Shown in pieces: positions 4,686-59,101 of a stretch of 64,000 nt of DNA. Below the pieces are notes generated by a model. The model was not told the origin of the DNA, did not search any database, and was given only the letters and a program-made list of their open reading frames with translations. Each line of letters opens with the position of its first letter. Positions within the stretch are counted from its first letter, which is position 1. The position numbers and the translations under genes are program-made. Source of the DNA: Escherichia virus TH06. The stretch lies in the sequence record MT446386.1, one strand, 5' to 3'.

Positions 4686-5419
4686 GTCGTCGTCAATCAC
4701 GGAAAGAATCACGGAAAGACCTTCGTCGGGAAGCACTTGTTACTCGTAAAGGTAAGAGAGAGTATGAAGAGGTGGTTTTAGCAAAGCCTGTAGTTCCTCA
4801 GAACCAGTTTCAGTCTGAGCTACTTAATGCTATCAAGACTAAACAAGTTGTGTTCACAGACGCTCCTGCGGGCTGTGGTAAGACCTTTGTAATCACTTCC
4901 ACGGTTATTGATGCACTGAAGAGTGGTAAGATTCAGAAGATCATCTTGAGTCGACCTTCAGTTGGCATGGGTAACTCTCTTGGGTTACTTCCGGGAGGGA
5001 TGCGTGAGAAGTTTGAACCATACCTTATGCCTATTATTGATGTTATTACTCAGCGATATGGTAAGGGGTTCTATGAATGCCAAATCGGAAATGGTAATAT
5101 TGAATTTGTACCTCTGGAATATCTCCGTGGTCGTTCCTTCAATGATGCCATTGTTATCGTGGATGAGTTCCAGAACACCACTAAAGAGGAAGCCTTCTCC
5201 ATCATGACTCGATTGGGAGAAACCTCTCAGCTGTTCTGCATGGGTGATACAAACCAGCATGATATGCGTGGTCGTGAGAGTGGCCTCACTTGGGCTACTA
5301 ACTTTATTGATGAACACGATCTGTATGAGTTTGCTGAGATTGTAGACGGTGAATCGGATGATATTGTTCGTTCTGGTTTCTGTAAGGCGATTGTTAAAGC
5401 AATGGAAAAGAAAGCTTAA
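4682..5419 (+). CDS. phoH: PhoH-like ATPase
   Basis: Walker A DAPAGCGKTF, LSRPSVGMGNSLGLLPG, IVDEFQN, MGDTNQHD match the PhoH family. Confidence 0.8.
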   Translation: MSRRQSRKESRKDLRREALVTRKGKREYEEVVLAKPVVPQNQFQSELLNAIKTKQVVFTDAPAGCGKTFVITSTVIDALKSGKIQKIILSRPSVGMGNSLGLLPGGMREKFEPYLMPIIDVITQRYGKGFYECQIGNGNIEFVPLEYLRGRSFNDAIVIVDEFQNTTKEEAFSIMTRLGETSQLFCMGDTNQHDMRGRESGLTWATNFIDEHDLYEFAEIVDGESDDIVRSGFCKAIVKAMEKKA

Positions 5420-5430
5420 ACAGTAACTTA

Positions 5431-5439
5431 TAATGTATA
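5431..5439 (+). promoter_or_regulatory. TAATGTATA element, candidate promoter for the phage-encoded sigma factor
   Basis: Exact 9-mer 37 nt upstream of ATG 5476; same 9-mer recurs upstream of three other genes. Confidence 0.4.
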
Positions 5440-5475
5440 CTCCTTAGTGTACACTGATATATTAAGGAGTTTTAA

Positions 5476-5793
5476 ATGGCAGATCATGTAGGAAAGAGAG
5501 ATTATGCACAAGAAAGACGTACCGCAATTGCCCGTGGTGAGACAGGCGTTGGGAGCAAGAGCGGAGATGCTCAGCGCCACCGTGCACGTCGCATCGTTGA
5601 AAAGCGCGATGGAAAAGCTGCTGTCAGAGGTAAAGACGTTGGACACAAACGAGCTGTCAAGTCTGGAGGCTCTAATGCGTCAAGCAACTTACGTGTTGAA
5701 TCAGTCAGCTCAAACCGTTCAAACGGCGGCAAAAGTGGTGATCGAGCTGGAAAAGCAGCTGGAGCACGCAAAGGAGCTTTAAGCTCATCGTAA
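5476..5793 (+). CDS. basic G/K/R/S-rich protein (105 aa); alternative overlapping frame 5504-5782 also open
   Basis: Strong RBS TAAGGAG 8 nt upstream; own upstream element and downstream terminator; locally GC-rich. Confidence 0.4.
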   Translation: MADHVGKRDYAQERRTAIARGETGVGSKSGDAQRHRARRIVEKRDGKAAVRGKDVGHKRAVKSGGSNASSNLRVESVSSNRSNGGKSGDRAGKAAGARKGALSSS

Positions 5794-11976: not shown

Positions 11977-12145
11977 TTTATCTCGCAGGTGGCTCCTGCC
12001 CTTCGGTACTTGCAAGGGATTCTGTGAATTGCCCAATATACAAGCCTGCAATAACTTTATCAGCTATACAATATATACATTACTAGTGTGATATATCTAC
12101 TACCAAAGATACTTATATTATATAGTACTCTTATCGGTATAAGCG

Positions 12146-57721: not shown

Positions 57722-57730
57722 TTTAATAAA

Positions 57731-57764
57731 AGGCTGCCTAGAAATAGGTGGCCTTTGTTGTTTT
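57731..57764 (+). terminator. rho-independent terminator
   Basis: AGGCTGCC...GGTGGCCT hairpin (with G-U pairs) followed by TTGTTGTTTT. Confidence 0.5.
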
Positions 57765-57887
57765 AATTAAGGGTCAACTCTTACTTAAACTAACAACGGG
57801 TGTATGGTATTGACAGGCATCGGCACGGAACTTGTTACCAACAAGGTTGGCGAATCAAGACCTCTGTGAAGCTCCGAAGAAATCAAG

Positions 57888-57914
57888 GCAGGTTCGACTC
57901 CTGCTCCCCGACCA
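57888..57914 (+). other. tRNA-like 3' fragment (perfect T-arm GCAGG-TTCGACT-CCTGC plus acceptor-like tail), no complete cloverleaf found
   Basis: GGTTCGACTCC T-loop consensus; no matching 5' acceptor strand upstream. Confidence 0.25.
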
Positions 57915-57934
57915 AATCAGCAAGAGGTGCTTAT

Positions 57935-58288
57935 ATGAGAAGCATGGTTAAAGATTGGGTAACTAAATCAGGTCTTCGTGCTGTGATTATGCACATGAAC
58001 GACTCCCACTTTTGTGGATATGTAGAGCTACCAGACAGCTTAAAACATAAAAACTTCACCGGATATAACGGGAATGAAGAAGTTTGTTATGTAAGTGTTC
58101 ATGGTGGTGTCACATGGCAAGATACCCTTGAAGAGATGGATGGTTTAGATACAATCGGATTTGATTGTGCCCATGCAGGTGATAAGACACGGTTCAACCC
58201 TAACGGGGTTCCAAGAACAGAAACGTTCTGCATCAACGAATGCGAACAAATGGCTGAACAACTAAGAGATCTCGAATCAAATGTCTAA
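57935..58288 (+). CDS. hypothetical protein (117 aa)
   Basis: Internal ATG 57935 of track ORF 57800 after AGAGGTG; track N-terminus overlaps the tRNA-like element. Confidence 0.45.
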   Translation: MRSMVKDWVTKSGLRAVIMHMNDSHFCGYVELPDSLKHKNFTGYNGNEEVCYVSVHGGVTWQDTLEEMDGLDTIGFDCAHAGDKTRFNPNGVPRTETFCINECEQMAEQLRDLESNV

Positions 58289-58457
58289 GCAAACAATCAA
58301 ACATACGCAAGCTGGTTACTCTTATATCAACTCTCCTTGTTGTGGTGCTCGTGTGAATCTGGTTAAGGAAGAGGTTCGTATCGTTCAGCGTGGCGCTACT
58401 GTTGTCCGTTCATGCTGTGTCTGTGGTAATGACATTTTTATCAAAGGTAAAGTATGA
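58281..58457 (+). CDS. small Cys-rich zinc-ribbon-like protein (58 aa)
   Basis: ATG 58281 overlaps upstream stop; SPCCG...SCCVCG. Confidence 0.4.
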   Translation: MSKQTIKHTQAGYSYINSPCCGARVNLVKEEVRIVQRGATVVRSCCVCGNDIFIKGKV

Positions 58458-58705
58458 AAAACTTCCAAGCTGCACCAATCACGAAAGTTATTTCAGTTGA
58501 TGATGTGATGATGACTGTTCCTCTGAACACTCGTTACATTGCAATTGACAAGATGGGTTATGTATGGGCTTGGAAGATTAAGCCTAGCTATAACGCACTG
58601 TTCGACGAGTTTGTTTGTACTGGTACGTATAGCCCTACGTTCTTGGGTTTGTTTGGAGAGTTCGAAGGTCAGTATAAAATCATCACTCTCCCTGCTTGTG
58701 CTTGA
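58454..58705 (+). CDS. hypothetical protein (83 aa)
   Basis: Track ORF. Confidence 0.45.
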   Translation: MKNFQAAPITKVISVDDVMMTVPLNTRYIAIDKMGYVWAWKIKPSYNALFDEFVCTGTYSPTFLGLFGEFEGQYKIITLPACA

Positions 58706-58712
58706 GGTTAGT

Positions 58713-58877
58713 ATGTTCAAGTGGTTTAAACGTCTATTCCATCTGCACGATTGGGTAATTCTCGAGAAGTATACACTAAAGATCACTGATGATTATGGTG
58801 GTACGAAACATAAAGGTTTACGTTATATCATGCAGTGCAAAACATGTGGTTGTATCACCAAGCGGGATATGATCTAA
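58713..58877 (+). CDS. small protein (54 aa) with C-terminal CxxC
   Basis: Internal ATG 58713 of track ORF 58539 after GAGGT. Confidence 0.4.
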   Translation: MFKWFKRLFHLHDWVILEKYTLKITDDYGGTKHKGLRYIMQCKTCGCITKRDMI

Positions 58878-58885
58878 ATAATTCT

Positions 58886-58961
58886 GCGCTCTTAGCTCAA
58901 TGGATAGAGCAGTAGCCTTCTAAGCTATTGGTTACAGGTTCGAGTCCTGTAGGGCGCACCA
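58886..58961 (+). tRNA. tRNA-Arg (anticodon UCU)
   Basis: 76-nt cloverleaf: acceptor GCGCTCT/AGGGCGC, D-arm GCTC/GAGC, anticodon stem GTAGC/GCTAT with loop CTTCTAA, T-arm ACAGG-TTCGAGT-CCTGT, encoded CCA. Confidence 0.8.
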
Positions 58962-59055
58962 CATTTAGGGCTAGTATGGGTGCGGCACCAGAGTTAGTGT
59001 ATCCCTGTTGAGGCAAGTGCTTTTATAACAGTGGGAATTACTTTCTTAGTGAGCT

Positions 59056-59082
59056 TCTGGTTCGATTCCAGATAGTCCACCA
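59056..59082 (+). other. tRNA-like 3' fragment (T-arm TCTGG-TTCGATT-CCAGA plus acceptor-like tail)
   Basis: GGTTCGATTCC T-loop consensus directly downstream of tRNA-Arg; no complete cloverleaf found in the preceding 115 nt. Confidence 0.25.
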
Positions 59083-59101
59083 AATCTAATAGGAGGTAAT
59101 T

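Follow-up and report, generated by a model that had tools for sequence, protein, structure and literature searches.

The closest described counterparts of the elements reported here are the RNAC (species 1) and RNAD (species 2) RNAs of phage T4, whose roles have been described as unknown (PMC3014915, PMC9697503). In T4, the transfer RNA (tRNA) gene for arginine is followed after 1 nucleotide (nt) by rnaD (119 nt) and, after a further 6 nt, by rnaC (139 nt). The fold of rnaC (z = -4.6) is closed by a terminal stem and comprises long internal hairpins as well as a canonical GGTTCGAATCC T-arm beside the 3' strand. Rfam holds no family for either RNA. We analyzed computationally a stretch of 64,000 nt from Escherichia virus TH06 (MT446386.1; hereafter the window), which its match list places among the phiEco32-like E. 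coli podoviruses (Gordonclarkvirinae, Kuravirus and relatives). It carries two elements, A (118 nt, 57797-57914) and B (115 nt, 58968-59082), that are likely complete long-arm tRNA-like RNA genes rather than fragments of tRNA genes. The assignment of A draws on its fold, a block of homology, and cassette boundaries, and that of B on its fold, cassette boundaries, and occurrence in 29 records. All window features given below lie on the + strand unless stated otherwise.

Like T4 RNAC and RNAD, elements A and B are phage-encoded, about 115-140 nt long, non-decoding, and absent from Rfam, and B shares with the T4 RNAs a position directly downstream of a tRNA-Arg gene on the same strand, 6 nt after its CCA. 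Element A differs in standing alone, with no tRNA beside it. In T4 rnaC there are two long hairpins, the closing stem has 7 pairs and two U.U mismatches, and CCA is not encoded, whereas A and B each combine a single long arm with a D-like region and an ACCA that is encoded; T4 rnaD differs further in having no recognizable T-arm. Alignment similarity between the T4 genes and A or B is confined to the T-loop, and the likeness to RNAC is an analogy, not a demonstrated homology. The tRNA-like domain of transfer-messenger RNA (tmRNA) resembles B in its G3.U acceptor, discriminator A, CCA, T-arm, and long helix at the position of the anticodon arm. However, B is 115 nt long with neither pseudoknots nor a tag reading frame, and A lacks the G3.U pair. 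The tmRNA mode of ARAGORN returned nothing at its default setting, and no Rfam tmRNA family matched at E<=10; at 80% the same mode gave one spurious 408-nt span over a lipoprotein open reading frame (ORF). YrlA RNA (RF02553) differs in that it ends in a Ro60-binding stem, with the acceptor-like stem closed and the topology permuted relative to A and B (PMC4201824). The YrlA model, present in the library, matched neither element at E<=10, and no Ro60/Rsr was found among the domains of neighboring ORFs or in the annotation of the complete relative Bas90. Canonical phage tRNA genes share with A and B the T-arm, U8/A9, a GG-containing D-like loop, an encoded CCA, an AU-rich trailer, and cassette-like mobility in the tRNA locus, but A and B lack a 7-nt anticodon loop, and their acceptors have fewer than 7 pairs, namely 6 in B and 4-5 in A.

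A preliminary description of this DNA had reported perfect T-arms with acceptor-like tails at 57888-57914 and 59056-59082, and both are confirmed. The first site reads GCAGG-TTCGACT-CCTGC-TCCCCG-ACCA and the second TCTGG-TTCGATT-CCAGA-TAGTCC-ACCA, each followed by AATC, and in both a T-arm with a 5-bp stem and a 7-nt loop (TTCGAYT) leads into a 6-nt strand and ACCA. Exact GGTTCRANTCC occurs three times in the whole window, all within 1.2 kb, against an estimated chance expectation of ~0.24, and this clustering argues that the T-arm sites are real and not a chance pattern. The same description had found no matching 5' acceptor strands. Such strands do exist, and the two sites are merely the last 27 nt of each element. 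GGGCTA at 58968 pairs with TAGTCC at all six positions (with a G.U at the third pair) and is the sole such partner within ~190 nt upstream, where the background for pairing of this type is 0.0016 per position. At the other site, the partner of TCCCCG is CGGGTG at 57797, which pairs at five of six positions, through four contiguous G-C/C-G pairs, a U.C mismatch, and a G.U; the background for at least 5/6 pairing is 0.0076 per position. The acceptor 5' strands of A and B fall exactly at boundaries set independently by comparative genomics, and the homology breakpoints of the two cassettes deviate from the predicted 5' end of the RNA by no more than 1 nt.

We compared the architecture of the two elements by folding with the acceptor and T-arm enforced. 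Although otherwise unrelated in sequence, A and B follow the same fold plan at nearly the same coordinates. The acceptor 5' strand occupies nucleotides 1-6 of each element (57797-57802 in A; 58968-58973, GGGCUA with the G3.U pair, in B), and the D-like region nucleotides 7-23 (57803-57819 in A; 58974-58990 in B, comprising U8/A9 and a D-like arm). Both D-like regions have U-A at the U8/A9 positions, then UGG and a GG-containing loop, and they have a GUAUGG motif in common; as a candidate promoter or repeated signal, GTATGG occurs in the window at chance frequency. In place of the anticodon arm stands a long irregular hairpin (A 24-81, 57820-57877; B 24-80, 58991-59047) of 57-58 nt with ~19-21 pairs, internal loops, and an apical loop of 3 nt in A and 4 nt in B. 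A linker (A 82-91, 57878-57887; B 81-88, 59048-59055) leads to the 17-nt T-arm, which is GCAGG-UUCGACU-CCUGC in A (92-108, 57888-57904) and UCUGG-UUCGAUU-CCAGA in B (89-105, 59056-59072). The 6-nt 3' strand (A 109-114, 57905-57910; B 106-111, 59073-59078, UAGUCC) and the ACCA (A 115-118, 57911-57914; B 112-115, 59079-59082) complete each unit. From the T-stem to the discriminator there are 6 nt in both elements versus 7 nt in canonical tRNAs, and a seventh acceptor pair, if assumed, would be A.A in both. For element A, the unconstrained minimum free energy (MFE) fold is already the tRNA-like structure. Across the two elements, folding with and without constraints agrees on the order of the modules and nearly on their positions.

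Measured against canonical tRNAs, both elements have the T-arm with a 5-bp stem and 7-nt UUCRANY loop. Neither has the 5-bp anticodon stem with 7-nt loop, which the long hairpin replaces, and neither has a 7-bp acceptor. The alanine identity set (G1-C, G2-C, G3.U, A73), together with CCA, is complete in B (GGGCUA/UAGUCC-ACCA) and incomplete in A, which has G3-C. The tRNA-Arg(UCU) gene at 58886-58961 is canonical with an encoded CCA, as the preliminary description had it; it is the single tRNA called by ARAGORN in the window and scores 72.4 bits with the Rfam tRNA model. The elements themselves gave no match to this model (RF00005) even at E<=10, and the region yielded tRNA-Arg alone, at the gathering threshold too. 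ARAGORN at default with introns allowed likewise returned nothing besides tRNA-Arg, and its lone extra call at a 90% threshold was a spurious 161-nt span that began within tRNA-Arg and reached the end of B. When introns were permitted at 80%, both elements were called: A as a tRNA at 57796-57913 (34-nt intron, anticodon UGA) and B as tRNA(GUU), with an intron of 22 nt and a variable arm that is long. Since calls on the opposite strand and inside ORFs also appear at 70-80%, these relaxed calls carry little weight. The relaxed search that the preliminary description had proposed thus adds no valid tRNA down to 90% and recovers both elements at 80% in the company of spurious calls. One reason that predictors miss A and B is the 6 instead of 7 nt after the T-stem. 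With no 7-nt anticodon loop, no default ARAGORN call, and no Rfam tRNA match, the option of unusual tRNAs that had been entertained earlier is not supported, in so far as decoding is meant. Complete units had indeed been overlooked, but they are tRNA-like and not tRNAs, and the evidence favors the third option then offered, tRNA mimics.

We also evaluated chimeras in which the long arm was swapped for a standard anticodon stem-loop. ARAGORN called both chimeras as tRNAs at its default setting, whereas controls whose 5' part was a random 23-mer taken from the window were called in 3-5% of cases and those with shuffled 5' parts in 16-18%. This test mainly confirms the acceptor pairing and a tolerable D-region.

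Comparison of related phages defines element A as a discrete cassette. In the window, the direct repeat TAACAA (57791-57796) flanks the cassette on the left and marks the insertion point in phages without A; on the right, after element A and an AAT trailer, lies CAGCAA (57918-57923), a decayed copy of TAACAA. In the kuravirus pEC-N1203-2Af.1 (pEC-N1203), the cassette (CGGG...ACCAAAT) sits between perfect TAACAA direct repeats, reading TAACAA-A-TAACAA, and in phiEco32 and DE5 a single TAACAA is followed by GAGG. Beside element A lies a 117-aa ORF of unknown function (57935-58288, phrog_2164) that is a presence/absence cassette of its own. Kuraviruses show four states at this insertion point, with neither A nor the ORF in phiEco32, the ORF without A in DE5, A without the ORF in pEC-N1203-2Af.1, and both in the window. 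The ORF is thus separable from element A and is not functionally tied to it.

Outside the kuraviruses, a 169-nt query covering element A found the Salmonella phages 7-11 and SeKF_80 (Grimontviridae, Moazamivirus), where the only similarity is to window positions 57796-57915. The copies (L003:3002-3119 in phage 7-11, L068:1502-1619 in SeKF_80) are 93-94% identical to those of kuraviruses, with no other DNA similarity in the aligned flanks. In phage 7-11, element A stands alone among other genes than in the kuraviruses; the 3 kb to its left and the 3 kb to its right hold no tRNA, and no flanking direct repeat is evident. This pattern indicates that an RNA gene of ~120 nt recently moved horizontally between phage families. 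Complete copies of A were found in ~4 kuravirus records, EC.W2-6 and pEC-N1203-2Af.1 among the carriers, and in the two Salmonella phages. Hypothetical-protein coding sequences (CDSs) are drawn over element A in pEC-N1203-2Af.1 (L067:1844-1987) and SeKF_80 (L068:1463-1624), and an entry of the window's ORF list (57800-58288, GTG start) runs through the element as an artefactual extension of the 117-aa ORF. The two CDSs are very likely annotation artefacts, because the downstream ORFs of DE5 and phiEco32 start after the insertion point, a finding on which we rejected A and B as coding sequence; the indel evidence and the pairing-preserving substitution pattern also make them probably false. A promoter and a terminator annotated at the insertion site in phage 4E8 overlap each other, look automated, and were set aside as uninformative.

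Element B is bounded as precisely. A 6-nt spacer, CATTTA (58962-58967), separates it from the tRNA-Arg CCA, and it is followed by a shared 3' trailer, AATCTAATAGGAGG (59083-59101), that holds the ribosome-binding site (RBS) of a phage lipoprotein gene (PF24052, 59102-59401). In phiEco32, which lacks B, the tRNA-Arg CCA runs directly into AATCAAATAGGAGG; relative to that phage, the window has CATTTA and B inserted between the CCA and the same trailer. In Bas91 and TH42, B is preceded by a very different tRNA-Arg allele and an 11-nt spacer, ATTTTAAACAA, and homology resumes at (A)GGGCTAG. Element B was found in 29 phage records, with SU10 and SkaterBoy_Bas90 among its carriers, and the loci that we fetched, which include Kuravirus, Suseptimavirus, and Nieuwekanaalvirus, always have it in an unannotated gap.

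BLAST of A and B against 5,426 E. coli genomes gave no match, which argues against a host origin or att-type identity. A degenerate-pattern search of IMG/VR, JGI metagenomes, and GTDB genomes gave no further homologue of A or B except in phage 7-11; its other matches were chance, ordinary tRNAs, or heterogeneous, non-canonical tRNA-like elements that could not be linked to A or B. One candidate, a mini-element in L001 sharing the T-arm of A, sits in an unrelated Bacteroides-type phage contig and was rejected. As a separate observation, contigs of other phages and of metagenomes also hold tRNA-like elements that ARAGORN does not call and that have 6 nt from T-stem to ACCA; several of these elements lie within clusters of tRNA genes (L017, reverse-complement index 5393-5498; L012:4779-4868; L031; L027; L024/L030; L037). 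L017, from IMG/VR, has a canonical D-arm, variable loop, and T-arm with a ~40-nt hairpin replacing the anticodon loop, and L031, L027, and L037 have Ala-type GGG.../...UCC-ACCA acceptors with G3.U.

Variation among the copies respects the proposed folds. The four alleles of element A differ at 8 positions, none of which breaks a pair, so that all 36 pairs are kept. The changes are C28U and C30U (each opposite G), an apical triloop change from AAG to GUA, T-loop position 102, and a compensatory change in the T-stem (C93U with G107A, CG to UA). In element B, with 4 variable positions, 34/34 pairs of the tRNA-like model are kept; positions 15 (G/A in the D-like loop, the position of purine R15) and 48 (apical loop) are loop changes, and the paired changes at 24 (G.U to A-U) and 73 (U-A to U.G) retain pairing. 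The rival MFE fold of B, which destroys the T-arm, has a G-C pair that G24A breaks in two sequences. All 12 substitutions seen in A and B together keep the proposed pairs, and the simulated chance that random substitutions break none is 0.03-0.07 for A and 0.20 for B. We regard this pattern as supportive of the fold and not conclusive. Across six variant loci from three genera, element B is 97-100% identical, versus 70-94% for the flanking ORFs of the same genomes. This conservation matches that of the adjoining functional tRNA-Arg allele, and B is intact in TH42 despite the broken tRNA-Arg there.

Our best reading, held with moderate confidence, is that A and B are non-decoding mimics of the tRNA top half matured by tRNA-processing enzymes, and we think it reasonably probable that they are functional stable RNAs. 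Each would retain a tRNA's top half, in which a short acceptor helix stacks on the T-arm, along with a single-stranded encoded ACCA and a D-like region. Transcription would run on the + strand together with that of the early-region genes around them, and B would share its transcript with tRNA-Arg. Host RNase P would cut their 5' ends, and endonuclease cleavage with exonuclease trimming would bring the 3' ends to the encoded CCA. The products may then accumulate as stable small RNAs, unable to decode and with the top half exposed, for which T4 RNAC and RNAD are the known case, and host factors that recognize a tRNA by this half alone may be presented with their acceptor/T-arm/CCA surface.

Several points weigh against this reading. 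We infer transcription, processing, and stability of A and B. Neither element has a long acceptor helix: that of B has 6 bp, and that of A has 4 bp together with a mismatch and a G.U. The unconstrained MFE fold of B keeps the acceptor, but its T-arm region pairs with the D-like region, and single-sequence folding energies are unremarkable (z = -1.96 for B and -0.04 for A). The chimera test is only moderately specific, as controls with a shuffled D-region were called at 30-60%. In the variation analysis, the structures derive from the same sequences used for the tests, variation is very low, the shuffle control for A is not significant (79/500), and B has no double-sided change. High identity could come partly from recent horizontal spread and not from selection. 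Finally, both elements are accessory, with phiEco32 lacking both and A complete in only those few kuravirus records.

Any specific trans-acting mechanism is tentative. AlaRS, the alanyl-tRNA synthetase, charges minihelices and microhelices that carry G3:U70. From its complete alanine identity set, element B is predicted to be alanylated, probably by AlaRS; we take its acceptor stem to be that of E. coli tRNA-Ala minus the G4:C69 pair. The C1-G72/A73 end of element A presumably resembles that of E. coli tRNA-Pro, and since ProRS, the prolyl-tRNA synthetase, also needs the anticodon, charging of A is doubtful. Immunity that targets the tRNA tail exists (PMC12851939), and A and B may serve as mimics or decoys for tRNA-binding enzymes or for such defenses; alternatively, their effect may lie in processing of the neighboring tRNA-Arg and downstream mRNAs. 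The most far-reaching version would have A and B as mobile, aminoacylatable, non-decoding top-half mimics of virulent phages that act in trans, with B charged with alanine, either as modulators of AlaRS or ribosome rescue or as decoys or sponges that bind immune effectors or host factors reading the acceptor, T-arm, and CCA only. We give this version a low probability. A literature search on phiEco32 with tRNA-like RNAs, and on phage tRNA-like RNAs with anti-defense, found nothing.

The elements could instead be dead tRNA genes, B of tRNA-Ala and A of tRNA-Pro type, in which the anticodon arm was expanded or received an insertion and an acceptor pair was lost, and which persist as functionless hitchhikers in a recombination hotspot. 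Their acceptor ends, which we take to be like those of E. coli tRNA-Ala and tRNA-Pro minus one pair, agree with this, as do the imperfect acceptor of A, the accessory and patchy distribution of both elements, the real tRNA debris at the locus in TH42, and the weakness of the covariation statistics. We nevertheless consider it unlikely. Element B is as conserved as the adjoining tRNA-Arg, clearly above the flanking ORFs, and stays intact in TH42 where tRNA-Arg is broken. For element A, what passed between two phage families was a precise unit, and all its substitutions keep pairing. Moreover, two unrelated elements share their dimensions (the arm at 24-80/81, the 6-nt 3' strand, and ACCA), which is unexpected from random decay.

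A further alternative makes A and B cis-acting processing signals, at which cleavage by RNase P at the 5' end and by an endonuclease after the CCA separates or stabilizes tRNA-Arg and the downstream mRNAs, with the RNA itself a by-product. Both elements lie on the coding strand and are followed after ~20 nt by a start codon that has a strong RBS, and A is behind a terminator, in a 5' untranslated region. For B, which begins 6 nt after the tRNA-Arg CCA, an RNase P cut at its 5' end would leave a short tRNA trailer, and its own trailer (AATC..AGGAGG) is the trailer that follows tRNA-Arg in phiEco32. However, phages that lack A or B still express these downstream genes, and from the same junctions, a cleavage signal has no need of a 57-nt long arm that keeps its pairing, and A occurs in a different gene context in phage 7-11. 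As the sole explanation we therefore find it improbable; it is compatible with maturation of A and B as top-half mimics, and the two are not exclusive.

Decoding tRNAs with a small intron or insertion removed after transcription would account for the ARAGORN calls at 80%, and L017 offers a canonical tRNA body in which ~40 nt replace the anticodon loop. We consider this very unlikely. The calls vanish at 90% and at default and keep company with calls on the opposite strand and inside ORFs, the proposed anticodon stems contain mismatches, and the intron positions are not the canonical 37/38. The complete relative Bas90 has no annotated RNA ligase or splicing endonuclease, and we know of no machinery in bacteria that splices short tRNA introns. 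The reading of the preliminary description as tRNA 3' fragments, whether recombination or att-type scars or remnants of a degraded cluster, could appeal to the T-arm and acceptor tail typical of such scars and to the true 3' fragment of tRNA-Arg at this locus in TH42, but it is contradicted by the 5' partner strands and D-like regions at the cassette boundaries and by homology that spans the RNA 5' end to just past the CCA, with no match in any of the 5,426 E. coli genomes, no integrase annotated in Bas90, and no tRNA near A in phage 7-11, and we reject it.

The surroundings of the two elements offer some context. The top matches of the region are phages EC.W2-6, DE5, SkaterBoy_Bas90, SU10, and phiEco32. 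An intrinsic-terminator-like hairpin of 12 pairs with a T-run (57729-57756) closes the upstream gene block 40 nt upstream of element A and is kept in phiEco32, DE5, and pEC-N1203. The proteins flanking A and B are the lipoprotein or PHROGs of unknown function and give no functional clue. At the tRNA-Arg(UCU) locus, close relatives carry at least three very divergent alleles, the window/SU10, phiEco32 (78% identity), and Bas91 types (compared at window 58886-58961, L004:3879-3955, L007:1415-1490, and L008:1352-1500). In TH42, ARAGORN detects no tRNA at the locus. Visual inspection shows a non-canonical tRNA-Arg(UCU)-like gene, with a GGGGGTT/AACCCCC acceptor, a CCCGT-CTTCTAA-ACGGG anticodon arm, no proper D-arm, and a long variable region, together with a genuine 3' fragment of a Bas91-type tRNA. 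The locus is a hotspot of tRNA gene turnover, possibly with diversifying selection on the phage tRNA-Arg. Genes for homing or HNH endonucleases adjoin tRNA-Arg in several relatives (Bas91, YF01, Paul, and Ptacy1532), overlapping the tRNA-Arg gene in Bas91 (L007:1002-1424), and in T4, segB (L005:2254-2919) likewise adjoins tRNA-Arg; such genes could lead to exchange of alleles and cassettes at the locus.

Two observations concern the wider phage genome. The sequence TAATGTATA, which we take to be the consensus of promoters for the phiEco32-encoded sigma factor, has five exact copies in the window, at 5431 and 12146 on the + strand and at 12074, 22331, and 39875 on the - strand, none of them near A or B. 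In SkaterBoy_Bas90, the gene Bas90_0070 (L071:1302-2615, minus strand, outside the window) encodes a 437-aa 'nucleotidyltransferase' with an N-terminal ITGGAVRD...DIDIF motif and a sub-threshold match to the Pfam PolyA_pol head domain (PF01743, 18.8 bits vs a cutoff of 23, E=0.002). These sequence features may point to a divergent enzyme of this phage group that adds CCA or resembles poly(A) polymerase. With the Pfam match below threshold and the gene outside the window, it was set aside as a candidate CCA-adding enzyme.

Knowledge of small tRNA-like RNAs in phages dates back to the species 1 and 2 RNAs of T4, and A and B are two further, unrelated examples. Both are absent from every annotation that we examined, with very likely spurious CDS calls overlaying A in two records, and where tRNA-like 'fragments' lie near other phage tRNA genes, a search for 5' partner strands farther away is worthwhile. 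Phages may have more non-decoding tRNA-like genes than their annotations suggest. The natural variants of this genetically tractable group of E. coli phages, with isolates that carry neither element, A only, B only, or both, give a comparative and experimental handle on RNAs of the RNAC/RNAD type, and the predicted aminoacylation of element B is testable. If true, trans-acting mimicry of the tRNA top half would suggest a function for the long-unexplained RNAC of T4.

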